NCBI GenBank assembly: GCA_964537315.1
Contig: CAZIAP010000002.1
Span: 43,237-107,236, forward strand
Origin: an uncultured Gammaproteobacteria bacterium
GTDB lineage: Bacteria; Patescibacteriota; Microgenomatia; Levybacterales; GWA1-39-11
DNA length: 64,000 bases
Direction of reading: 5' to 3'
The notes beneath the pieces are model-generated. The model saw nothing but the letters and a program-made list of their open reading frames with translations, did not search any database and was not told where the DNA came from. A program made the position numbers and the translations under genes. Positions 1-13,177 of this stretch are shown here, one piece after another. How positions within the stretch are numbered: position 1 is the first letter of the stretch; each line of letters opens with the position of its first letter.

Positions 1-397
1 CAACATCTTCATCCAAAATGCCCATATCAATCATGCTGTCCCCATTAACCTTGAGAGCATAATACGAATTGTTTGGTTTCAATTTAATATTGCTTGGAAC
101 TTGAATGGGTTCAGGATTTTCAATTGGTTCGATTGGTTCACCTGCTGCTATAAAACCCAACAAAGGAACTGTCCTTTTTTGCGTAATTGGTTCAATTCCA
201 CGATTTTTATGAGGATCTCTTTTTAGGTATCCCTTTTTTTCCAATTCCTCAATGTAGTATTGGGCTGTACTTAGGTTTTCTGTGTTCAAAAAACCTGCTG
301 TTTCACGCAATGAAGGAGAGAACCCATTTTCATGAACAAATGAATTGATAAAATCCAACACGCCTTTTTGTTTATCAGTTAATGGCTTGACTTGCAT
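1..397 (-). CDS. lexA: LexA repressor, partial (C-terminus cut by the window edge). Not in the ORF track.
   Basis: Reverse-strand translation from the ATG (complement of 395-397) gives MQVKPLTDKQKGVLDFINSFVHENGFSPSLRETAGFL...PLLGFIAAGEPIEPIENPEPIQVP...ALKVNGDSMIDMGILDEDV. This has a winged-helix N-domain, the AAGEP linker and the GDSM catalytic-serine motif of S24 peptidases. The ORF runs off the window start. Confidence 0.75.
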   Translation of the reverse strand, partial: MQVKPLTDKQKGVLDFINSFVHENGFSPSLRETAGFLNTENLSTAQYYIEELEKKGYLKRDPHKNRGIEPITQKRTVPLLGFIAAGEPIEPIENPEPIQVPSNIKLKPNNSYYALKVNGDSMIDMGILDEDV

Positions 398-416
398 AGT
401 GTATTATGATAACTTT

Positions 417-435
417 ATGACAAATTTATAGTCAT
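417..435. promoter_or_regulatory. Candidate operator palindrome ATGAC-N9-GTCAT in the lexA/DUF2188 divergent promoter
   Basis: An ATGAC (417-421) / GTCAT (431-435) inverted repeat lies between the lexA start and the divergent gene. A strong RBS AAGGAGGTGAGG follows at about 465-476. Its position fits an autoregulatory LexA box, but it is not a canonical known LexA consensus. Confidence 0.25.
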
Positions 436-480
436 GTCAAGCAATATAAATATATCAATCTATAAGGAGGTGAGGCAATA

Positions 481-711
481 ATGGCAAAATCACAACATGT
501 AGTACCATATGGCAAAGATTGGGCAGTTCGAGGTGCCGGAAATAGTCGTGTCACTTCAATACACAAAACACAATCATCAGCATATCAAGAGGCTAGGCAG
601 ATAGCAATCAATAACAAAGCGGAGGTGGTAATACACCGCCCAGACGGCAGAATAAGGGATAAAGATAGTTTTGGCAATGATCCTTTTCCTCCTAGGGATA
701 AAAGGTTTTAA
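481..711 (+). CDS. DUF2188-family small protein
   Basis: The 76-aa product MAKSQHVVPYGKDWAVRGAGNSRVTSIHKTQSSAYQEARQIAINNKAEVVIHRPDGRIRDKDSFGNDP matches the DUF2188 pattern (V-P-xx-GW-V...A-S-xH-TK-EA-A-R-A...-IH--DG-IR). An AAGGAGGTG RBS sits 8 nt upstream. Confidence 0.6.
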   Translation: MAKSQHVVPYGKDWAVRGAGNSRVTSIHKTQSSAYQEARQIAINNKAEVVIHRPDGRIRDKDSFGNDPFPPRDKRF

Positions 712-754
712 ATCTGTTGGATTATCATCATGCACACTTATTTTAAATGCGTAA

Positions 755-1270
755 ATGGAAGAAATTTTAGAGAATTTTGAGTTTGTTAGATTTGTCTTCG
801 TCCCATTTTTATCTTTTGTTGTGGGTTTTGCTTTAGCTGTATTTATTTATAGACACCCTCAAACAAAAAAATTTAAATTTGTCACTAAATTGTGGCACAT
901 TGAATCAGAAAAGTACCGCAATCTTACAAGAAATCATTACAACATCTCAGATTTGCAAATTGTGGATTCCAATAATAAACCTGTACGTCACCCATACACG
1001 CTTAATGATGGGAAAAATGTTTTTAAATGCATTGCCTCCTATACTGATGGCACGACTGAAAGTTATTCTCCATATTGGTTGTGTTGGGCAAAAGGAAGTG
1101 ATGATCCTTGGTGCGTTTTGGGTAAAAGTAGAAAAGATGAAGTATCTATTACTAGAGGCGAAAGACATGAGAGATATTCAGAATTGTCATGTTGGGTATT
1201 TCCACCTAAGAGGCAGTCAGAAACAGGGAATGTAGAAATACCGCATGTCTCAATCGGCTTTAAGTATTGA
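755..1270 (+). CDS. Hypothetical membrane-anchored protein (one N-terminal TM helix, Cys/Trp-rich C-domain)
   Basis: 171-aa ORF. The hydrophobic segment FVRFVFVPFLSFVVGFALAVFIY is followed by a Cys/Trp-rich domain. Its stop overlaps the next gene's start (ATGA-type overlap at 1267-1270). I recognise no family. Confidence 0.35.
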   Translation: MEEILENFEFVRFVFVPFLSFVVGFALAVFIYRHPQTKKFKFVTKLWHIESEKYRNLTRNHYNISDLQIVDSNNKPVRHPYTLNDGKNVFKCIASYTDGTTESYSPYWLCWAKGSDDPWCVLGKSRKDEVSITRGERHERYSELSCWVFPPKRQSETGNVEIPHVSIGFKY

Positions 1271-2700
1271 AAATTATGTACATACTAGAAAAAGAACACG
1301 CACTAAAACTGTCTGCTGCCCTTGCTAGCTCATATTACAAAGAACGAGTAAATTATCTTGAAAAAGTACTCCGAGCAACAAGAAGCAAGCGTCACAAGAA
1401 TAATAAAGAAATGTTGCTTGCAATGCAGTTCAACATAGCCAAATTTGAAACTAATATTTGGAACACTCTTAGCGAAGGCAGGAATCTAGCAAAACAGTTA
1501 AATTCAAAATCCAGTCTAACATCCGAAGAAGAGAAGGACTTAAAAGGAATAGAAGAACATATCCTTATACATGAACATCTAATCAGAATTTCTCGTACTA
1601 TTTGCGATGGAATTGCGTGGAGGAATTTGAATTACAATCGCACTTTCTTAAATTCCTCTGCTCGAGGATTTGGAGCAGGGAGAATTGATGTAAATAGTAA
1701 AGAGTTCAAGAGTGAGTTTATGTGGGCACACAGGATTTCAAAAAGATTAAATAGCTTGGTAATACTTAACGATTTAACTAGATTCTTGAGAATTGGTGAC
1801 TTAACAGAAATTAATGATGGCATAGCTTTTATTCATGAAATTAAGAAGTATGGAAAAGAAGTTAAAAATTTGTTCACACTAAAGAAAGTTACAGGCAATG
1901 CCAAAATAAGCAAACAGGCAATAAGATTACTAGAATTACAAAGAATTGCGTTTGCCAATAAAGCCAAAATTTACGGCATAGATGTAGAAACAAAAGAAGT
2001 TGAGTTAGATTTAAAAACCAACACAAATAAAGTCAAGAAATTATTTAGAGAATCAGAAAAGAAATTTGTTGTATCTGATGACATTGATGAGTGTATTAAT
2101 GTAGAAGTAACAAACTTCCATGCAATTCAAGAACATAAACAGAAAGTTGATATTGAAGAGTTGAAAAAAATATCTCCTAAAAAAAGAGTGACTGACTTAA
2201 TTCTTGTTCATAGCAATTGGGACACATTTTATAGTGATGAAAAGGGCAACTTTGTAAGATCCGCACCACCATACTCAATATTTCCCTTTTCAGCAAAGGA
2301 CTGTACTTTTCTAATGTCTGGTTATTATCTAGTTAAATGCTCATTGAATGTTACAAAACTAAAAGAAGTTCTACTACAAAACAATTGGATAATAGAGGAA
2401 CGAACAGAGAAAGATCTAGATAAACAGATCGCAGATTACGAAAAGGAGAAAGATACGATGTTTACAGTTAAAGAGGGTTTGTATGCACATGTTCCAAGTG
2501 ATGGTGGGCTCTTTACAGTCAAACGAGGGCCTTTCAGTGTATCGTTTGACGCAATGCTATATTGCAGGCTAACTATGGAATATCTATCTGTTGAGAGCAT
2601 TCTTAATATTTTGGAGCACATGTATAAGATCGCATCACAAAGACGAAAAGATGATATATATTTTCCTAGATTTAGGAATGAAAACGAATTTTGGAATTAG
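1267..2700 (+). CDS. Hypothetical 477-aa protein. A possible PD-(D/E)xK-like motif (RIGDLTEINDGIAFIHEIKK) is weak inference.
   Basis: Long ORF translationally coupled to the upstream gene. I recognise no domain. The D...ExK spacing in IGDLTEINDGIAFIHEIKK resembles a restriction-endonuclease-like core. No Walker A motif. Confidence 0.45.
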   Translation: MKIMYILEKEHALKLSAALASSYYKERVNYLEKVLRATRSKRHKNNKEMLLAMQFNIAKFETNIWNTLSEGRNLAKQLNSKSSLTSEEEKDLKGIEEHILIHEHLIRISRTICDGIAWRNLNYNRTFLNSSARGFGAGRIDVNSKEFKSEFMWAHRISKRLNSLVILNDLTRFLRIGDLTEINDGIAFIHEIKKYGKEVKNLFTLKKVTGNAKISKQAIRLLELQRIAFANKAKIYGIDVETKEVELDLKTNTNKVKKLFRESEKKFVVSDDIDECINVEVTNFHAIQEHKQKVDIEELKKISPKKRVTDLILVHSNWDTFYSDEKGNFVRSAPPYSIFPFSAKDCTFLMSGYYLVKCSLNVTKLKEVLLQNNWIIEERTEKDLDKQIADYEKEKDTMFTVKEGLYAHVPSDGGLFTVKRGPFSVSFDAMLYCRLTMEYLSVESILNILEHMYKIASQRRKDDIYFPRFRNENEFWN

Positions 2701-2733
2701 CTACATTGCAGGAGTAGGTAAAAGTGTCCAGTA

Positions 2734-3723
2734 TTGAAGTACACAAATATGAGTTACTACGAATTAGAGCAAGATAAAGTCATTAGACAATTTTTAAAGG
2801 ATTTTCCTGAACCAACAAAGGACAATCTTTTTATCTTATTTCATAGCCATTTCATACACCCAGATATAGAAACTGAATTTCTAAACAAAGTTGCAAAAAA
2901 TGTTATTGATGTAAGTTACGATTATTTTATTTCTCTCCCGAAAACAAAGAGATTTCACTTTTTACGAGCATTGGGTAAATTAATAGACTCTGCTCTGTCG
3001 TTAAAAATATGGGAATTCCAGCTCTCAAGAAATGATGCGACGTGGTATTGGAAAGATACCCCCACTTACTTTTTAGCATTAACACATTTAGTAGAACCTC
3101 TTGAGTCTTTAAGGCATGAAATGGGATTAGTCAGAAGAAAGCATTTGTATGAAAAAATTGTTTGTGTAGAGGGAGAAAGCGAGCTTAGTTTTATAAGGAC
3201 ATTGTATCTAACTGCAAAATATGCAAACTTTGACTTTCCTGTCTACAGCTATAAAGGGAAGGGTGAAATACAGAACTTAATACACTTTATTAAAGAAAAA
3301 AATAGGCAAGGAATAAGAGTTCTCTTATCGTACGATATGGACAGACAATCAGACTCATTTATTAAGAAGATTAAGAAAAAATGCACAATTGAAAAAACTT
3401 TTGGGTTCAGTCAGGATTTTGAAGGCTCATTTCCACCTGAAATATTAACGCGTGCTTTGGATGACTATATTAAAAAGTACACAAAATTAAAAATTTCGCT
3501 AGATGAAAAAGACATTGCTGGTTTATTATCTCAACATAAGCCATTCTTAAAAGTGTTCAGTCAAAAATACAACGTAAAAGTTAATAAAGTAAAATTAGGT
3601 GAGTTATTGGGGAAAATTATGGCTGGCGTACTGTATCAACACTGGAACGATGTTTTTAACAAACGCGTAAAAACACCATTTAACTCTGAAATATATAAGT
3701 TTTTGAAATATTTAGTTTCATAA
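2734..3723 (+). CDS. Hypothetical 329-aa protein with a TOPRIM-like motif (E...DxD, OLD/DUF4435-like)
   Basis: IVCVEGESELSFIRTL is followed about 44 aa later by RVLLSYDMDRQSD. This glutamate then DxD arrangement is characteristic of TOPRIM nuclease domains of OLD-family and DUF4435 proteins. The rest is unrecognised. Confidence 0.45.
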   Translation: MKYTNMSYYELEQDKVIRQFLKDFPEPTKDNLFILFHSHFIHPDIETEFLNKVAKNVIDVSYDYFISLPKTKRFHFLRALGKLIDSALSLKIWEFQLSRNDATWYWKDTPTYFLALTHLVEPLESLRHEMGLVRRKHLYEKIVCVEGESELSFIRTLYLTAKYANFDFPVYSYKGKGEIQNLIHFIKEKNRQGIRVLLSYDMDRQSDSFIKKIKKKCTIEKTFGFSQDFEGSFPPEILTRALDDYIKKYTKLKISLDEKDIAGLLSQHKPFLKVFSQKYNVKVNKVKLGELLGKIMAGVLYQHWNDVFNKRVKTPFNSEIYKFLKYLVS

Positions 3724-3727
3724 AGAC

Positions 3728-4378
3728 ATGATAACCTGGCTTCAAGAAAATTATGGGTGGGCGATTAGTCTGCTAATACAGAGCTTTATCGCTTACCATG
3801 TATTTTTCCTATCCCAAAGACTTTCCAACAGAGAACGCCTGAGACACAAAGAGTCAATCAAGAGAAAAGCAGATGAGTTATTGTCTGAAATTCGAAAGAG
3901 AAAGTTAAACAGCGAGGTGTATTTGGTAAACATTAATCGCTATTTCAAGGACTATCCTTCGAATAAAGAAAAGCGGTTCGAGGGCTATTCCCACATTAAA
4001 GCAGAGATTAAAACTACTAGATTTGATGGTATCGAATTCTTCGCAGAACCGCCAAAAGAGGTATATAGAAAAAAAGACAGCACTTTGTCATTTAAAGGTA
4101 ATAAAAAGGAACATGTGTTTAATGCGTTTCCAGTTGGCATTGTTCCTTATGAATGGATTGAGCACGTAGACGCGGTTGGTGATGAGTATGCCTATGTTCC
4201 ATTATTTTATTGCCATTTCAAAGGTAGGACACATTGGAAGTTTTGGAAGAGGTTGTTATTTTTTGGGTATCCATACAAAAACATGCTCTATTATCGTTTA
4301 AGCGATGTATATAATAAGCGAAACGATCCAATGGAGATGAAATACGCCTATATTGATGAGCCCATATCAAAGAACTAA
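3728..4378 (+). CDS. Hypothetical membrane-anchored protein (N-terminal TM)
   Basis: 216-aa ORF starting 5 nt after the previous stop. N-terminal hydrophobic helix WAISLLIQSFIAYHVFFL. No known domain. Confidence 0.4.
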   Translation: MITWLQENYGWAISLLIQSFIAYHVFFLSQRLSNRERLRHKESIKRKADELLSEIRKRKLNSEVYLVNINRYFKDYPSNKEKRFEGYSHIKAEIKTTRFDGIEFFAEPPKEVYRKKDSTLSFKGNKKEHVFNAFPVGIVPYEWIEHVDAVGDEYAYVPLFYCHFKGRTHWKFWKRLLFFGYPYKNMLYYRLSDVYNKRNDPMEMKYAYIDEPISKN

Positions 4379-4813
4379 ACACATGACTAATAAGAAAATC
4401 AACATAACAATTAAAACAAATCTAGATAACGCCACGCCAGAAGAATGGGAGCGATTTATGAAAAATCTAATAGAGGCACACAGAATACTATATAGACGAG
4501 TATTGGAACGAAAAACCAAAGAGATTCTTAGGTTGCCATAGCTACTGGCCGTACCTTATCCATATCTTCTTTTAGTTGGCTAATGAACCTAAAATCCTCA
4601 AACACTTTGAATATACGCACGAATTGACTGGTTATATTAACGTTACGATCCTCGAGCTACTGAAAAAGTCACCATTTGGTGGCTTTTTTTGTGGCTTCTT
4701 TAGAGTAGGCACTCCTTTAGTCTTGAGCTGGAAACGCGAAATCTTCAAAAGAAAACTAGTCGCAGAGCTACAAAACTAACATAAAAGATCATACGTATGT
4801 TAGAATAAATAAA

Positions 4814-5314
4814 ATGAGTAAACTAATTACATGCATCTGGTTTGTCAACAACGACGGAGAAGAGGCAGTAAAATACTATGTAGACACTTTTAACTCAGCC
4901 CCTGGGATTCATGAAGCAAAACTTGGAGATATCACAAAAGCACCTAAGGCAAGCGAAGAAGTTTCAGGTAGACCTGAAGGGTCAGTTCTGACAGCTGAGT
5001 GCGAGATTGATGGAATAAGCTTCATGGCTCTCAATGGTGGTCCTCTTGACCAATTCAAACTTAATGGGTCTACATCTTTTATTATTGAATGTGAAACACA
5101 AGAAGAAATAGATTTCTTCTGGGAAAAACTTTCAGCAGTTCCTGAGGCTGAACAATGCGGGTGGTGCACAGACAAATTCGGTGTCACATGGCAAGTAGTT
5201 CCAAGGATTTTGGATGAAATGATGAGAGATCCTCAAAAAGCTGAGGCAGTAACCGCTGCTTTTATGCCAATGAAGAAAATTGACCTTGAAACAATTAAAA
5301 AAGCAGGCGAATAA
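4814..5314 (+). CDS. PhnB-like / 3-demethylubiquinone-9 3-methyltransferase-domain protein (VOC superfamily)
   Basis: MSKLITCIWFVNNDGEEAVKYYVDTFNSA...CGWCTDKFGVTWQV matches the PF06983 pattern (I-P-LWF...A-EA---Y...CGW--D-FG-SWQ). Paralog of 9539-10027. Confidence 0.7.
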   Translation: MSKLITCIWFVNNDGEEAVKYYVDTFNSAPGIHEAKLGDITKAPKASEEVSGRPEGSVLTAECEIDGISFMALNGGPLDQFKLNGSTSFIIECETQEEIDFFWEKLSAVPEAEQCGWCTDKFGVTWQVVPRILDEMMRDPQKAEAVTAAFMPMKKIDLETIKKAGE

Positions 5315-5464
5315 AAGACTTATTTAGGCTATGCATTTGTAAAGAAGCATTCATAAAAATAGGTACCGACTTCGTCTTTCAGGTTGAGCGCAATAACATT
5401 GTATTTTACCCTCAAATTTCTTATAACCCAAGTCTTTAATTAGAGCCTTTGATATAATCATCCC

Positions 5465-5902
5465 ATGAAGATCGATTCTCATGCTCCACTAATTGCGAAA
5501 AAAAGAGAACTAATTAACGCTCCTATAAACCACGTTTGGAAAATTCAATCTGATATAAATAATTGGCCCAAATGGCAAAAAGAAATCTCAGACGCGAAGC
5601 TTCATGGAAAGTTAGCAAAAGGAACAACTTTTACTTGGAAAGCTATGGGTATGAACATCAACTCAAAGTTACAAGAGGTCATTGAAAATAAAGTAATTGG
5701 ATGGTCAGGAGAATCATTTGGAATGAACGCAATTCATATCTGGAAGTTTGAAAAACAAGGAAATAAAACATTAGTTACAACTGAGGAATCACTATCCGGT
5801 TGGTTCCCACGGTTAATCAAGCTGTTTAAAGCAGATTTTCTAGAACAATCACTTACAAAAGCATTACTGAACTTAAAAAATCAAGCAGAAAAAACAAAAT
5901 AA
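5465..5902 (+). CDS. SRPBCC (polyketide cyclase/START-like) domain protein
   Basis: 145-aa product (I-AP---VW---D---WP-W) typical of polyketide_cyc2/SRPBCC small proteins. Confidence 0.6.
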   Translation: MKIDSHAPLIAKKRELINAPINHVWKIQSDINNWPKWQKEISDAKLHGKLAKGTTFTWKAMGMNINSKLQEVIENKVIGWSGESFGMNAIHIWKFEKQGNKTLVTTEESLSGWFPRLIKLFKADFLEQSLTKALLNLKNQAEKTK

Positions 5903-5917
5903 TCTCATGTTTTATAC

Positions 5918-6304
5918 ATGTTAAAATTATTTATGGTAAGTAAAGATGATCTAAACAAAGTAGAATATAACCTTCCAGCAGACTGGCGTGGAGATGTAAT
6001 GACGCAAATCCGCATACTAATAAAGCAAGCAGACCCAGAGATAATAGAAGATGTTAAGTGGAAGACACCATCAAACCCTGACGGGGTTCTAGTTTGGTAT
6101 AAAGATGGAATGATTACTACCGGTGAAATTTACAAAAAACATATTAGACTAGCTTTTGCAAAAGGACCTGCTCTTAAAGACCATGACCCAAAAGGACTTA
6201 TCAACAGTTACCGCGCGATTATCATACATGAAGAAGACAAAATTAATGAACGTGCATTTAAAGATCTTATCCGAGCTGCAGTAGCACTAAATAGCAAAAA
6301 ATAG
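5918..6304 (+). CDS. DUF1801 (YdhG-like) domain protein
   Basis: ...IRILIKQADPEIIEDVKWKTPSNPDGVLVWYKDG... is characteristic of the DUF1801 family. Confidence 0.55.
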   Translation: MLKLFMVSKDDLNKVEYNLPADWRGDVMTQIRILIKQADPEIIEDVKWKTPSNPDGVLVWYKDGMITTGEIYKKHIRLAFAKGPALKDHDPKGLINSYRAIIIHEEDKINERAFKDLIRAAVALNSKK

Positions 6305-6553
6305 TAGAGAGTGGAGCCCAGACAAAGCACAACGATATATCACCCACATTTGTCCAAGTTCTTCAGTATAGTAAAGGTCCAGAATTAGACTGATACTACA
6401 TGATTATTACAGGAAAATCATACTACTTTATTAGATTTTTGTTACATTTGCTAATAAAGAAGCCTCCTAGAAGATATGAGTAGGCAAGTCAACTATAGCG
6501 ATACAGAATCATTATTTTTAATTATCCTTTCGACAAAGTAGGTGATGAACTAC

Positions 6554-6766
6554 ATGAAAGATGAGGCAAACATAGCAACACATTTAAGAGAGCACCAACA
6601 ATATCCCGCTACTAGAGAAGAGCTAATTGAGACATGCAACCAATTAGGTGACTTTTCAGATGAAGACAAGCAGACGTTCATGGATAAGCTTCCTGAAGGC
6701 ACATACAATACCGCTGAGGAAGTTATGATGGCTCTTGATATGGATACAGCACCAAGAACTGCATAA
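6554..6766 (+). CDS. DUF2795-like small protein
   Basis: ATREELIETCNQLGDFSDEDKQTFMDKLPEGTYNTAEEVMMAL resembles DUF2795 (P-t---l-----g-d-e-l--L--LP---Y----dV--A). The start is ambiguous (GTG 6542, ATG 6545 or ATG 6554); 6554 has the best spacing to the GGTG RBS. Confidence 0.45.
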   Translation: MKDEANIATHLREHQQYPATREELIETCNQLGDFSDEDKQTFMDKLPEGTYNTAEEVMMALDMDTAPRTA

Positions 6767-6870
6767 ACAACTTTTACTAACATACTTGAAAAATATTAGT
6801 TGTTCAAAGTGTTAAAGATCTGACACCTTACTTCGACCTAAATATTAGAACTTTCTGATAAAATATACTC

Positions 6871-7260
6871 ATGCAAAAATATAAGTCGTTGGAGGAATTT
6901 TTTGATGACCTTAAAGAACCCAGAAAATCTGAGGTTGAAGCATTAAGAAAGATAATTTTTGCTGCAGAAAACGATTTGAAGGAGCAAATTAAATGGAACG
7001 CTCCAAGCTACTCATTCAATCATGACGACAGGATAACTTTCAATTTATTCGACCCAAATTCTACGCGTTTAGTATTTCATGCAGGAGTAAAAACGAAGGA
7101 AGATAAGAAAGCTCCACCAATCTTTGATGATGAAACAGGATTATTAGAGTGGAATTCAAATATTAGAGCTACGGCTAGCTTTGAAAACTTAAAGCAAATT
7201 TCTGAAAGTAAAGAGGAATTAATAAAAGTAATTAAAAAATGGCTTGAAGTGTTTGATTAA
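6871..7260 (+). CDS. DUF1801-family protein
   Basis: ...EVEALRKIIFAAENDLKEQIKWNAPSYSFN... is the conserved DUF1801 core (IKW--P). Confidence 0.5.
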   Translation: MQKYKSLEEFFDDLKEPRKSEVEALRKIIFAAENDLKEQIKWNAPSYSFNHDDRITFNLFDPNSTRLVFHAGVKTKEDKKAPPIFDDETGLLEWNSNIRATASFENLKQISESKEELIKVIKKWLEVFD

Positions 7261-7288
7261 TAATCACTGTGTTATAAAACTTTAGATT

Positions 7289-7633
7289 ATGTTTAAACTG
7301 AAACGTATTTATGAAAAAGCTGATAAATCTGATGGGTTTAGAGTTTTGGTCGATAGACTATGGCCAAGAGGAGTATCGAAAGACAGAGCCCAACTTGACC
7401 TGTGGTTAAGAGAAGTTGCTCCCAGCACTAATCTTAGAACATGGTTTGGACACGATCCTAAAAGATGGGAAGAGTTTGAGAAAAGGTATCGACAAGAGTT
7501 AAAAGACAAAGACGAATATTTGCAAGAATTAATCTCACTTGAAAAAAAGCATAAAACCGTCACATTATTGTATTCGGCAAAAAATACCGAACAAAATCAA
7601 GCAGTACTACTAGCAAAAGTACTGAAACACTAG
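7289..7633 (+). CDS. DUF488 (YeaO-like) family protein
   Basis: MFKLKRIYEKADKSDGFRVLVDRLWPRGVSKDRAQLDLWLREVAPSTNLRTWFGHDPKRWEEFEKRY is the DUF488 signature (K-RIY-----DG-R-LVDRLWPRG--K-----D-W-K--APS--LR-WF-H-P-K-W--F---Y). Confidence 0.65.
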   Translation: MFKLKRIYEKADKSDGFRVLVDRLWPRGVSKDRAQLDLWLREVAPSTNLRTWFGHDPKRWEEFEKRYRQELKDKDEYLQELISLEKKHKTVTLLYSAKNTEQNQAVLLAKVLKH

Positions 7634-7682
7634 ATAAGATTTATTGACCAGATCCGAAAAAACTGCAAAATCACAACACAAC

Positions 7683-8486
7683 CTATACATAAGGCAATGA
7701 CCCTAGAGAAGAGTACTCTTCATTGAAACCATAAAGAGTATTCATATCTTCATCACTTATCTCAAAATCAAATACATTTATATTCTCTTCTATGTGATTT
7801 TTATGATTTGCTTTGGGAATTGGAACAGTTCCAAATTGCAAATTCCAACGAATTAAAATTTGTGCTGGTGACTTTTGATATTTACTTGCTATCTGTTGTA
7901 AAGCTGGTTCATCAAGTCTTTGGGTCCGAGTTAAAGGACTGTATGCTTGAATTAGAATATTTCTTGCATCACAGAATGCTTTAAATTCATTGCTATACCC
8001 AAATGGACTCCACTCAATCTGATTAACAGTAGGCGTTTCCTCTGTGTCTTCAATCAGCTTATCTATTAAATCAGCAGAATAGTTACTAACTCCTATATCA
8101 CGCACAAGTTTTTCATTTTTAGCTTTAATCAAACCTTCCCAAAGTTTTTCGCCTGCACCTGTTGGTGGTGGGCGATGAATAAGCATTAAATCAACATACT
8201 CCAACTTCAATTCTTCTAAATTAGATAATGTGCGTTTATAAGCATCATCCATTTCTTCAACTTTAGTTGTGATAAAAAGTTCTTCTCTGCTTACACCACT
8301 TTTTATTATTCCATCTCCAATTCCAGGTTGAGAACCATAATCACTTGATGTATCAATTAATCGATATCCCTTATTAATAGCAAAAGCAACTGTGTCTGCT
8401 GTTTGGTCCATTAATTGCCATGTTCCCAGTCCCATTACAGGCATTTTATTTCCCGTGTGAAGAGTAACAGTAGAGTCTTTATTCAT
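7683..8486 (-). CDS. Aldo/keto reductase (2,5-diketo-D-gluconate reductase-like)
   Basis: LHTGNKMPVMGLGTWQ...GYRLIDTSSDYGSQ...YVDLMLIHRP...IGVSNY...IEWSPF...IPKANHKNHIEENINVFDFEIS carries the AKR catalytic/NADPH motifs. Confidence 0.8.
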   Translation of the reverse strand: MNKDSTVTLHTGNKMPVMGLGTWQLMDQTADTVAFAINKGYRLIDTSSDYGSQPGIGDGIIKSGVSREELFITTKVEEMDDAYKRTLSNLEELKLEYVDLMLIHRPPPTGAGEKLWEGLIKAKNEKLVRDIGVSNYSADLIDKLIEDTEETPTVNQIEWSPFGYSNEFKAFCDARNILIQAYSPLTRTQRLDEPALQQIASKYQKSPAQILIRWNLQFGTVPIPKANHKNHIEENINVFDFEISDEDMNTLYGFNEEYSSLGSLPYV

Positions 8487-8577
8487 ACCTTCATACTACA
8501 ATACGTTTATCTGCACAATTTATATTGAAGTAAGAAAGGTGCAAGAACTTTAATTCAGTATTGACTTAATTAAGCTA

Positions 8578-8931
8578 ATGCTTTATTATCTAATCATGGA
8601 TATATTTTCAGCACTTGCAGATCCTACCAGACGCCAGATAGTGGAAATGCTGGCCAGTAAAGGAAAACTTCCAGCAACAACTATCTCAAAAAATTTTAAT
8701 GTTAGTCCTCCCGCTATTTCTCAACACCTAAAAGTACTCCGAGAAGCAAAAGTTGTAGATGTGGAGAAACGTGCACAACAACGACTTTACACCATAAATG
8801 CTGCTTCTATTAAAGATGTAGAGAAGTGGATTCAAGGAATCACTAAACAATGGGAAGAAAGATTTCTTAGGTTAGATAAATTATTTGAAGAAGAAAATCG
8901 TTTGAAAGGAGGTGAGCACAATGACAGATGA
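8578..8931 (+). CDS. ArsR/SmtB-family transcriptional regulator
   Basis: FSALADPTRRQIVEMLASKG...TTISKNFNVSPPAISQHLKVLREAKVV is an ArsR HTH. The start may be the internal Met at 8596. Confidence 0.7.
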   Translation: MLYYLIMDIFSALADPTRRQIVEMLASKGKLPATTISKNFNVSPPAISQHLKVLREAKVVDVEKRAQQRLYTINAASIKDVEKWIQGITKQWEERFLRLDKLFEEENRLKGGEHNDR

Positions 8932-9430
8932 ACAAGGAATTGTAATTGAAAGAGTGTTTGATGCCCCGCGCGATCTTGTGTGGAAAGCATGGACCGATCC
9001 TGAGATGATCAAAAAATGGTGGGGACCTGAAGGATTTTCTGCACCAAGCATAAAGAATGACCTCCGCGTAGATGGGAAATATATATTTGCTATGCAAGGA
9101 GAACCGGGATCTGAATGGGAAGGTGTAATGTATAGCGCTGGTGTATACAAAGAAATTGTTCCAAATGAGAAGATCGTAGTAACTGATTATTTTTCAGATG
9201 AGAGTGGTGAAAAAATGAACCCTGCTGATTTTGGCCAAGATGCAAATTTTCCATCTGAACAAACAGTGACAATTTTATTTGAAGATGTTGAGGAAGGAAA
9301 AACAAAACTCACCCTTAAATATCCAAAACCAGAAACAGAAGAGCAATACCAAGCAATGTTAAAAAGTGGTATGCAAGAAGGATGGCAATCAAGCCTTAAT
9401 AAACTTGAAAAACTCTTACAAGAAGCGTGA
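8921..9430 (+). CDS. AHSA1/SRPBCC (activator of Hsp90 ATPase homolog) domain protein, ArsR-associated
   Basis: IERVFDAPRDLVWKAWTDPEMIKKWWGPEGF...GGEW is an AHSA1-like domain. A GGAGGTG RBS lies 7 nt before ATG 8921 (the track's 8912 is a GTG). The usual ArsR + AHSA1 pairing is present. Confidence 0.7.
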   Translation: MTDEQGIVIERVFDAPRDLVWKAWTDPEMIKKWWGPEGFSAPSIKNDLRVDGKYIFAMQGEPGSEWEGVMYSAGVYKEIVPNEKIVVTDYFSDESGEKMNPADFGQDANFPSEQTVTILFEDVEEGKTKLTLKYPKPETEEQYQAMLKSGMQEGWQSSLNKLEKLLQEA

Positions 9431-9538
9431 TTTTATCATGCTAAAACTAATCCATTATTGTCCTGGAATTATTACCAGGACAATAATGGAATGATTACCA
9501 GTTGGCAGATTTATCTGATATAAAGGGGGTAAATATAT

Positions 9539-10027
9539 ATGACACAAAAAATAATACCAAATCTTTGGTTTAACAATAACGCGTCAGAGGCTGTAGATTT
9601 TTATCTTTCAGTGTTTAATGATGCGAAAATTTTAAATACGGACTACTACACTGAGATTGGAGAAAACATTACCGGACACAAAAAGGGAGACGTTTTAACA
9701 ATTGAGTTTGAACTGTTAGGAACTCGATTTATTGCAACTAATGCCGGTCCTGGATTTACTTTCAACCCTTCAGTATCTTTCATGGTGGAATGTAAAGACC
9801 AGGAAGAAATCGATTATTATTGGGAAAAGTTATCTGCAGTTCCTGAAGCTGAACAGTGTGGTTGGTTACAGGACAAATACGGAATATCTTGGCAAATTGT
9901 TCCGACTACCTTATTTCATATGTTAAAAGTTGGCACACCGGAGCAAAGAAAACGGGTAACAGAAGCTTTCATGCCCATGAAAAAGTTTGATATCAAGGAA
10001 TTGGAGAACGCTTTCGAAGGAGAATAG
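9539..10027 (+). CDS. PhnB-like VOC-family protein (paralog of 4814-5314)
   Basis: MTQKIIPNLWFNNNASEAVDFYLSVFNDAKI...AVPEAEQCGWLQDKYGISWQIVP shares long identical stretches with the 4814 ORF (EEIDxxWEKLSAVPEAEQCGW). Confidence 0.7.
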   Translation: MTQKIIPNLWFNNNASEAVDFYLSVFNDAKILNTDYYTEIGENITGHKKGDVLTIEFELLGTRFIATNAGPGFTFNPSVSFMVECKDQEEIDYYWEKLSAVPEAEQCGWLQDKYGISWQIVPTTLFHMLKVGTPEQRKRVTEAFMPMKKFDIKELENAFEGE

Positions 10028-11829: not shown

Positions 11830-12073
11830 CTTTCTTATTTCTTACACTATTTTTCTTTGTATTTTATCTTCAAGCAATAAAATGCTTGTATGAGAATATT
11901 TAGATCTTTCATCGCTGTTCTCTCAAGCACAGTTTACTAAATAAATACAGTTTCTAGCCTCTTTTACTAGAAACTCTTACTTAACTCTTCACATAAATTG
12001 TATCCGTAGTTTACATATATTCCGTATTGTGTATTAAATTCAAGAGCTTAACCTGAAAAAGGAGGCGATAAAA

Positions 12074-12583: not shown

Positions 12584-13177
12584 TTAAATAAAGGGTTTAA
12601 GTGATTGCATATCCTCAATAAGAGTTTTTTTGCTTCTGCCTGAGTAAAGCGCTACTGCAGGGTGATAAAGAGGAATGATATGTATATCTCCATACGCGGC
12701 TTTAGCAGGAATGACTTTTCCGTGGAGAGTGCTAATTGAACCTGTCTGTTCAAGAAGGTTAAACTTTTCCAGTATATATTTCATAGAAAACCTTCCGAGT
12801 GTAGCTATAACTTTTGGTTGAATGATATTGATTTGTTTTTCCAGAAAAGGTGAGTAAAGAGCAATCTCGTGAGGTGAGGGGTCTCTGTTTTCTGGGGGTC
12901 TATCTTTAACAATATTGGTAATGTATACATTTTTTCGCTCAAGATTAATAGATGTAAGCATTTCATCTAATATTCTGCCTGCAGCTCCACAAAACGGTCG
13001 TGCTTGTTCAGCTTCGTTCTTACCTGGTGCTTCACCTGCAAACATTATCGTAGCATCATGGTTTCCTTCTCCAATTACAGGGTAATAATTATTTTTCTTT
13101 CTGTATTCATATAAAGGTGATTCTTTGAGGTTTAAAACTTCATCACGAATTTTTCTTAGTTCCTCTGTTTTATTCAT
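12584..13177 (-). CDS. Uracil-DNA glycosylase, family 4
   Basis: ATIMFAGEAPGKNEAEQARPFCGAAGRILDEML...YITNIVKDRPPENRDP...HPAVALY carries the family-4 UDG motifs (GEAPG, F-G-AG). Confidence 0.8.
   Translation of the reverse strand: MNKTEELRKIRDEVLNLKESPLYEYRKKNNYYPVIGEGNHDATIMFAGEAPGKNEAEQARPFCGAAGRILDEMLTSINLERKNVYITNIVKDRPPENRDPSPHEIALYSPFLEKQINIIQPKVIATLGRFSMKYILEKFNLLEQTGSISTLHGKVIPAKAAYGDIHIIPLYHPAVALYSGRSKKTLIEDMQSLKPFI

Follow-up and report, generated by a model that had tools for sequence, protein, structure and literature searches.

The four adjacent genes at positions 755-4378 of the window, by which we mean the whole 64-kb stretch of DNA analyzed here, most probably (roughly 60%) are accessory genes that were inherited independently of one another and came to be stacked in a variable, defence-island-like part of the chromosome of a Microgenomates (candidate phyla radiation) bacterium. 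Each of the genes, termed g1 to g4, occurs elsewhere alone or with other partners. In gene-dense genomes such as this one, close packing by itself is poor evidence that genes form a system, and it was synteny across genomes that separated what appear to be four independent cassettes. Bacteria of the candidate phyla radiation have tiny genomes and, to our knowledge, their immunity has been little studied.

Gene order and left flank

ORF translation of the window yielded four ORFs at 755-4378, all on the plus strand and packed as an earlier sequence-only reading had described them. The features of the locus are the following.

1-399, minus strand: first 133 codons of a gene for a LexA-like repressor (full product 198 aa), from frame translation
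481-711, plus strand: DUF2188 small protein of 76 aa, with which the run of plus-strand genes begins (Pfam PF09954, E 3.4e-22)
755-1270, plus strand: g1, 171 aa
1267-2700, plus strand: g2 as the longest ORF (477-aa reading)
1276-2700, plus strand: g2 from the homologue-based start, 474 aa
2734-3723, plus strand: g3 as the longest ORF (329-aa reading)
2749-3723, plus strand: g3 from the homologue-based start, 324 aa
3728-4378, plus strand: g4, 216 aa
4383-4541, plus strand: small conserved ORF of 52 aa after g4, called in assembly L026
4543-4660, no strand assigned: non-coding element of ~115 nt at the right edge of the g3-g4 unit, from blastn

The gene extents reported earlier were those of the longest ORFs, with TTG starts. 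However, g2 starts at ATG 1276 in all of its homologues and in the public gene call P0025 (474 aa, 100% identical), and g3 starts at ATG 2749 in 22 of 22 aligned homologues, resulting in a protein of 324 aa. The intergenic gaps are therefore likely 5 nt (g1-g2), 48 nt (g2-g3) and 4 nt (g3-g4); the 4-nt overlap described at 1267-1270 is probably an artefact, and the gap before g3 is 48 nt instead of the 33 nt given before. Because an intergenic scan detected no terminator-like site between the genes, co-transcription of g1-g4 in the window genome is plausible, and they would probably share one transcript behind the DUF2188 gene. With this tight spacing and no detectable terminator, a functional coupling of g1-g4 confined to this lineage is conceivable, which counts against the reading of independent genes.

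A divergent lexA/DUF2188 pair does adjoin the block, as had been claimed: the small protein matches DUF2188, and the LexA-like 198-aa protein, complete in L026, contains LexA_DNA_bind and Peptidase_S24 domains. An AGGAGG ribosome-binding site lies upstream of the DUF2188 gene, and the intergenic region shared by the pair harbors an inverted repeat (418-430/445-457). The remainder of the LexA-like gene is located left of the window and has 4 nt in common with the gene for a type II DNA methyltransferase; this methyltransferase has its own convergent REase_II gene (E 2e-54), completing a type II restriction-modification system immediately left of the window. The island would extend leftwards over this system and the LexA-like gene.

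Inheritance of the four genes

The sequence-only reading had interpreted g1-g4 as one candidate undescribed defence system, in which a TOPRIM protein would act with a large partner and a pair of membrane proteins; we now consider this very improbable. The tight one-strand spacing, the lack of an internal terminator and the defence-like surroundings would fit such a system. However, the search for four-gene synteny in other genomes, which that reading had itself proposed as a check, found none conserved, a result it had named as counting against it: the g1-g2-g3-g4 block was present only in L026 and L027, the window organism's own assemblies, and elsewhere each gene has independent contexts. 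The comparison covered ~12 informative g3 loci, 16 other g2 loci (15 from reference genomes and L064) and two contexts each for g4 and g1. All 16 g2 loci lacked g1, g3 and g4, and no g1 homologue was found in any g2, g3 or g4 locus. In the closest relative (g3 89% identical), g2 has decayed to its last 102 codons, while g3 and g4 are intact. At the DNA level, homology between the window and L013 or L016 is confined to the g2 ORF and ends at its borders, and homology to L003 begins at the g3 start codon; a 265-aa left flank gene is common to the window genome and L003, with different intervening content. Homology that stops at gene borders is as expected of cassettes. Hidden relatives were sought as well: BLAST revealed no relation of the genes upstream of g3 in other loci to g2 or g1, or of the genes downstream of g2 (178 and 215 aa) to g4. 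No shared recombination site was found at the cassette junctions, and only L013, L015, L016 and L019 have a short leader in common.

One alternative would pair g3, as an ATPase-less TOPRIM nuclease, with g4 as its membrane-anchored partner and leave g1 and g2 as unrelated neighbours; we regard this as unlikely. Indeed, g4 directly follows g3 in the window, L003, L004 and L005 (gaps of -1 to 11 nt), a single stretch of shared DNA homology takes in g3 and g4 together with the 52-aa ORF and the 115-nt element, and homologues of g3 (P0003) and g4 (P0075) are each listed on a contig of 9,809 bp, which may be one and the same. Yet g4 is missing at about nine g3 loci with enough downstream sequence (L001, L006, L008, L010, L037, L039, L040, L044 and L051), and its family, which is widespread in Patescibacteria, is about nine times larger than that of g3 (217 versus 24 clusters), with members that, in the absence of g3, come after an HTH_3 gene or after a gene of 243 aa located beside SIR2-HerA. 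Between the window and L003, moreover, g4 is 83% and g3 66% identical, and the two have therefore diverged to different extents. A quite improbable reading makes g2 and g3 interchangeable effectors of a modular system, the window holding two orphaned ones. It builds on a nearly identical three-gene block of 2.5 kb (206/381/254 aa; 90-94% amino-acid identity and 88% DNA identity, the latter for L003 versus L013); the next gene, 26-39 nt after the block, is g3 in L003 and g2 in L013, L016 and L019. This supposed constant part does not occur in the 64-kb window and is missing at most g2 and g3 loci. The block also behaves as a cassette, its flanks being unrelated on either side, so that its adjacency to g2 or g3 may only reflect a shared insertion hotspot; in addition, g2 pairs with AlbA_2 genes in L011 and L064. 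Finally, g1-g4 could be SOS/repair-related or surface housekeeping genes under the neighbouring LexA, in keeping with the divergent LexA-like gene, the inverted repeat and the widespread, well-conserved g4. Replication and repair are also among the processes in which TOPRIM nucleases act. One OLD-family ATPase from archaea is described as functioning in cell-cycle progression and not in defence (PMC12796447). We consider the housekeeping reading improbable, as housekeeping genes do not show a patchy distribution, a remnant in the closest relative or borders like those of cassettes; the LexA-like gene, for its part, shares its operon with the restriction-modification methyltransferase, and no other g2 or g3 locus has it.

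The TOPRIM protein g3

As judged from predicted domains and residues, g3 carries an OLD-family catalytic core, i.e., a TOPRIM domain followed by a helical domain. Residues 1-133 of the 324-aa protein are helical, ~134-225 form the TOPRIM domain and ~226-324 are again helical. The motifs IVCVEGESE and YDMDRQSD, on which the sequence-only reading had relied, are both present (residues 142 and 200 of the 329-aa reading), although the distance from the Glu to the DxD is 55 residues instead of the ~44 aa stated before. The assignment to the OLD type was also supported: 22 of 22 g3 members match PF20469, with the window protein scoring 17.8 bits, below the Pfam curated threshold of 23.2 bits, and the OLD metal-ligand residues are invariant, as are all predicted catalytic residues in 22/22 sequences.

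3169-3588, plus strand: predicted catalytic residues of g3, with codons E141 3169-3171, E145 3181-3183, D196 3334-3336, D198 3340-3342, E225 3421-3423 and K280 3586-3588

The closest known protein is the Class 2 OLD nuclease of Burkholderia pseudomallei (PDB 6NK8; PMC6755086), via its C-terminal catalytic region, with 154 residues of g3, including helical parts, aligning to 6nk8_B. Its metal ligands are E400/E404 and D455/D457 (PMC6755086), and the E/E and D/D spacings in g3 are the same. In the Burkholderia protein, the helical domain after TOPRIM contributes E508, a metal-B ligand, and the catalytic lysine K562 (PMC6755086), to which we infer that E225 and K280 of g3 correspond. By contrast, the suggested likeness to DUF4435 could not be reproduced, as a DUF4435 search of g3 gave no match. 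Among the PADLOC models, HEC-01B matched at E 0.0038 and 15 bits only, and a PDB profile search with the g3 alignment returned nothing significant. Matches of g3 to DUF3226 (Pfam PF11536) all fell below the curated cut-off, and g3 differs from it by additional N- and C-terminal helical domains. We know of no function for DUF3226.

The absence of the usual ABC ATPase partner, in turn, was borne out. OLD-family proteins possess an N-terminal ABC ATPase with a Walker A motif, whereas g3 has a 133-residue domain that is all-helical in the model, matches no ATPase family and has no detectable relatives; a Walker A motif is also lacking in g1, g2 and g4. PARIS AriB (DUF4435), HEC-01B and MADS mad4 are TOPRIM proteins encoded beside an ABC ATPase (PMC11464382; bioRxiv 10.1101/2024.01.29.577857), whereas no such partner of g3 recurred in ~12 informative neighbourhoods. 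Only in L003 was an AAA_15/AAA_21 gene present, located 3 kb upstream and paired with HNH (Septu-like).

We propose that g3 would cut nucleic acid by two-metal catalysis via E141, E145, D196, D198, E225 and K280, and that its helical domain (1-133) would take over the regulatory or sensing role of the ABC ATPase, making g3 a putative new variant of a known nuclease type. It is conceivable, if rather doubtful, that g3 founds an OLD-type class controlled by a small helical domain and acts as a single-gene immune nuclease or g3-g4 pair in bacteria of the candidate phyla radiation, with g2 drawn from the same pool of cassettes as another single-gene nuclease of new structure. In OLD, Gabija, PARIS, Wadjet, HEC-01 and HEC-04, the TOPRIM effector is either fused to an ABC ATPase or paired with one, and this ATPase is thought to be the infection sensor; a conserved OLD-type core in which the ATPase is swapped for a small helical domain would, if true, represent another mode of nuclease control.

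Predicted membrane proteins, defence-like context and g2

Both g1 and g4 had been described as membrane-anchored. This holds for g1, whose N-terminal segment is strongly hydrophobic (Kyte-Doolittle 2.67 over 19 residues) and which combines a transmembrane helix at the N-terminus with a ~115-aa domain at the C-terminus, while g4 is borderline (1.59), with an N-terminal helix that is conserved and moderately hydrophobic in the alignment. The reported Cys/Trp richness of g1 amounts to a mild enrichment (9/171 residues). Matches to g1 fall into 25 representative clusters, some with other N-termini, including HNH, and in the two contexts available the neighbours of g1 homologues differ from those in the window. 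In the proposed picture, g1 and g4 would be membrane-associated proteins. Because g4 is the last, tightly coupled gene in three different small operons, it may cooperate with whichever gene precedes it. Downstream of g4, the 52-aa ORF has a 49% identical homologue after g4 in L003 and relatives in L013 and L019. The ~115-nt element occurs once in the window, whereas in L003 and L004 it is present as two copies in direct orientation on either side of inserts of 2-3 kb; it has no Rfam match, and an Rfam scan of window positions 1-10000 gave chance-level matches only.

In agreement with the defence-island-like surroundings noted earlier, a type II restriction-modification system adjoins the window and neighbours of the relatives are often defence genes. 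Those of g3 relatives include restriction-modification methyltransferases, the Septu-like AAA_15 and HNH pair, nSTAND3, an MmeI-like enzyme, SNF2-Mrr, BrnT and HicAB; SIR2-HerA, beside the 243-aa gene that g4 follows elsewhere, also belongs to the defence genes near g1-g4 relatives. The case for a putative defence role of g1-g4 comes from their neighbourhoods, and PADLOC matched none of the four above noise. A viral origin of g2, g3 and g4 was considered as well, and viral contigs (IMG/VR) contained no relatives of the three, which speaks neither for nor against defence.

The statement that the products belong to no named family applies to g1, g2 and g4 (Pfam, NCBIfam, PADLOC and PHROGs). Across the loci compared, g2 behaves as a solo cassette gene. 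Its family comprises ~50 clusters, mostly from Microgenomates, and neither these databases (above noise) nor the PDB, also when searched with a profile from the g2 alignment, provided a match. The structure model is nevertheless confident (pLDDT 89, pTM 0.90). The possible PD-(D/E)xK-like segment pointed out earlier, RIGDLTEINDGIAFIHEIKK, is present at residue 175 of the 477-aa reading.

1798-1845, plus strand: candidate PD-(D/E)xK motif of g2, D175 ... E188-x-K190 (474-aa numbering), from alignment and model

Across 21 sequences, down to 22% identity, D175 is invariant, and at least 90% of the sequences retain E188 and K190. In the model, D175 immediately precedes strand 176-180 and the ExK ends strand 183-190; helices 142-157 and 213-227 flank these strands, placing the motif on a helix-strand-strand-strand-helix-strand segment. 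A conserved D...ExK on such a segment is what g2 has in common with PD-(D/E)xK nucleases, among them type II restriction enzymes; in sequence and fold, it matches no known member. We consider that g2 may be a second nuclease with a PD-(D/E)xK-like site (D175/E188/K190), a weaker proposal than that for g3. It is not the restriction enzyme of the nearby methyltransferase, which has its bona fide REase_II gene. Moreover, tblastn with this and two other methyltransferases detected no homologue of these in Microgenomates g2 loci, and a Pfam scan of g2 neighbours (one gene per locus and two from L011; L011, L014, L015, L018 and L020-L023) revealed no methyltransferase. TATAAT-like boxes lie 8-12 nt upstream of the g2 ATG in several loci and suggest that g2 has its own promoter there. 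With a confident model that matches no solved structure, g2 is a reasonable target for structural and functional work. Separately, we observed that distant g2-like genes adjoin type III Mod methyltransferases.

Gene layout and conservation at 755-4378

Four plus-strand ORFs, here g1 to g4, are present at 755-4378, beside a DUF2188 gene (481-711) and the start of a LexA-like gene (1-399, minus strand). Because the starts of g2 (ATG 1276, 474 aa) and g3 (ATG 2749, 324 aa) are fixed by homologues and by public gene calls on an identical genome segment, the spacings g1/g2, g2/g3 and g3/g4 are 5, 48 and 4 nt, and the 4-nt overlap between g1 and g2 claimed by the sequence-only reading is therefore unlikely. 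No terminator-like site was found between the four genes. The motifs quoted in that reading are present, and Walker A is indeed absent from the proteins (0/4). From the named matches of g2 and g4, the organism belongs to the Microgenomates/Patescibacteria group; GC is 33-35% in the first 4 kb vs 34-42% across the window.

The four genes had been proposed to form one undescribed defence-type system. Our data contradict this: the cross-genome synteny check failed, with g1, g3 and g4 missing from all 15 reference-genome loci carrying g2 as well as from the closest g2 relative. Neighbours of g2 vary and include AlbA_2/Schlafen, DUF5677 and DUF4238 genes, serine recombinases, a trypsin-like peptidase and a three-gene cassette named by its protein lengths, the 206/381/254 block. 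The related sequences are mostly metagenome-assembled genomes, in which mis-binning may occur. We read 755-4378 best as part of a variable island, a mosaic of accessory modules of one or two genes each, within which g3 would be an OLD-type nuclease variant and g2 a candidate new nuclease.

Features at compared loci (locus:positions)
L026:972-3433, complete type II restriction-modification system of the same genome, adjoining window position 1 on the left
L004:7632-7946 and L005:2-346, g2 remnant, a 104-aa ORF matching the last 102 residues of g2 at 81% identity
L003:5432-7961; L013:3837-6348; L016:116-2648; L019:3549-6974, 206/381/254 block
L003:9820-9932 and 11959-12073; L004:9648-9760 and 12588-12701, copies of the ~115-nt element
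L011:5826-6995; L064:5830-6999; L025:4817-6274, Schlafen/AlbA_2-domain genes
L024:237-1568 and L025:6764-8095, distant g2-like genes
L040:6957-9272 and L042:2219-2923, branch with TOPRIM/nSTAND3 overlap

Cassette borders and alternative groupings

In the closest g3 relative (89% identity), only the last 102 codons of g2 lie upstream of intact g3 and g4, apparently the remnant of a deletion. The window genome shares DNA homology with L013 and L016, two g2 loci, in the g2 ORF only. A 265-aa gene at the island's left edge is common to the g3-g4 locus L003 (58% identity), and the content between it and g3 is wholly different in the two genomes. The 2.5-kb 206/381/254 block shares 88% DNA identity between L003 and L013 amid unrelated flanks; its proteins match no Pfam family above threshold, and the 381-aa protein matches phrog_17982 (E 6e-43).

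Three other readings are less probable. Homology to L003 runs from the g3 start through g4, a 52-aa ORF and the ~115-nt element, as a g3-g4 pair would predict, but in the few contexts sampled the g4 family (217 clusters) is also preceded by an HTH_3 gene, with a serine recombinase nearby, or by a 243-aa gene that has SIR2-HerA and AlbA_2 as neighbours, and g3 is directly followed by g4 only in the clade whose g3 identity is 65% or more. Alternatively, g2 and g3 might be interchangeable effectors of the 206/381/254 block, which precedes g3 in L003 and g2 in L013, L016 and L019. The region could also comprise LexA-controlled, non-defence genes.

The ~115-nt element, without an Rfam match, is single-copy in the window genome (4543-4660). 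Two related genomes each have two direct copies of it, with 2-3 kb of additional genes in between (MarR and RibD_C, or PNPOx, dCMP deaminase and DUF3284). This layout resembles an attachment or recombination hotspot. The overlapping ORF at 4576-4779 is probably not a gene.

The g3 and g2 protein families

By its sequence, g3 belongs with the OLD-type TOPRIM proteins but lacks an ATPase. The TOPRIM-like assignment held: all 22 aligned family members match Pfam OLD-like_TOPRIM (best E 1.8e-5) and 17 of the 22 match DUF3226, the window protein itself giving sub-threshold matches to both. The AlphaFold model, built from this 22-sequence alignment, has a mean pLDDT of 84. Invariant residues are E141, E145, D196, D198, E225 and K280. 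Burkholderia OLD binds metal A through E400, D455 and D457 and metal B through E404, T506 and E508, and requires K562 for processive cleavage (PMC6755086); the g3 E/E and D/D spacings are identical to those of this enzyme. We infer that E225 and K280 are counterparts of its helical-domain residues. Residues 1-133 are all-helical, and no recognisable relatives of this part were found. Among 5.8 billion proteins this small family has 24 clusters (90% identity); a metagenome scan recovered relatives of 320-434 aa down to about 21% identity, and in all but one of these Walker A is missing from the same ORF. A branch with about 39% identity to g3 has a 771-aa nSTAND3 NTPase gene that lies downstream of the TOPRIM gene and overlaps it, possibly a lineage-specific NTPase partner.

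The g2 family comprises about 50 clusters, for the most part from Microgenomates, and was recognised by none of the profile libraries searched. D111, G112, W115, R116, N165, D166, T168 and D175 are invariant in its alignment and H187, E188 and K190 nearly so; a further conserved block lies at about residues 314-337. In the model, a confident one (pLDDT 89, pTM 0.90), D175 stands just ahead of a strand and E188-x-K190 ends the next, with helices on both sides, the element order of PD-(D/E)xK cores. The PD-(D/E)xK-like segment noticed earlier is conserved, and g2 is a plausible candidate nuclease.

At four g2 loci (L014, L017, L018 and L022), TATAAT-like boxes 8-12 nt 5' of the ATG nearly abut the start codon, suggesting that g2 is transcribed there as a separate unit from a promoter of its own, possibly without a leader. 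In two Microgenomates loci g2 is directly preceded (gap 1-5 nt) by a Schlafen/AlbA_2-domain gene, and one also lies near a distant g2-like gene; such a gene may be a recurrent partner. The distant g2-like proteins (443 aa) are 23-24% identical to g2. One from a Gaiella MAG and one from a Brocadiaceae MAG share 90% identity, whereas the adjoining type III Mod methyltransferases are only 58% identical, which suggests recent inter-phylum transfer or mis-binning.

Surroundings, g1 and g4

The restriction-modification system left of the window has two convergent genes, one for a 296-aa type II restriction enzyme (PADLOC REase_II, E 2e-54) and one for a 334-aa type II N6/N4 methyltransferase; the methyltransferase ORF overlaps the LexA-like gene (LexA_DNA_bind and Peptidase_S24) by 4 nt. 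To our knowledge, a LexA-type repressor co-transcribed with a restriction-modification methyltransferase is an unusual controller arrangement. Defence-type neighbours of g3 relatives include restriction-modification methyltransferases, Septu-like AAA_15 with HNH, an nSTAND3 NTPase, an MmeI-like enzyme, SNF2-Mrr, BrnT and HicAB; those of the distant g2-like genes are a type III Mod methyltransferase and a DrmD-like helicase. The families were not found on viral contigs. The defence-island context stands, and it is this neighbourhood that suggests a possible defence role for g1-g4.

An inverted repeat, TGACAAATTTATA / TATAAATATATCA (85% complementary, 418-457), lies between the LexA-like and DUF2188 genes and is a candidate operator.

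Of the two membrane anchors described earlier, that of g1 is a clear N-terminal transmembrane helix; that of g4 is borderline. Both are best read as membrane-associated proteins. The g1 C-terminal domain (residues about 55-171) occurs in about 20 clusters with varied N-termini, one of them an HNH endonuclease domain; proteins with this domain include P0201, P0199, P0203 and P0210. At two full-length g1 homologues the neighbouring genes are unrelated. Weak repeated matches to the domain also occur inside large surface proteins with Big_4, Rib or BACON domains. At three g4 loci (L031-L033), an AlbA_2 gene lies two genes upstream of g4.
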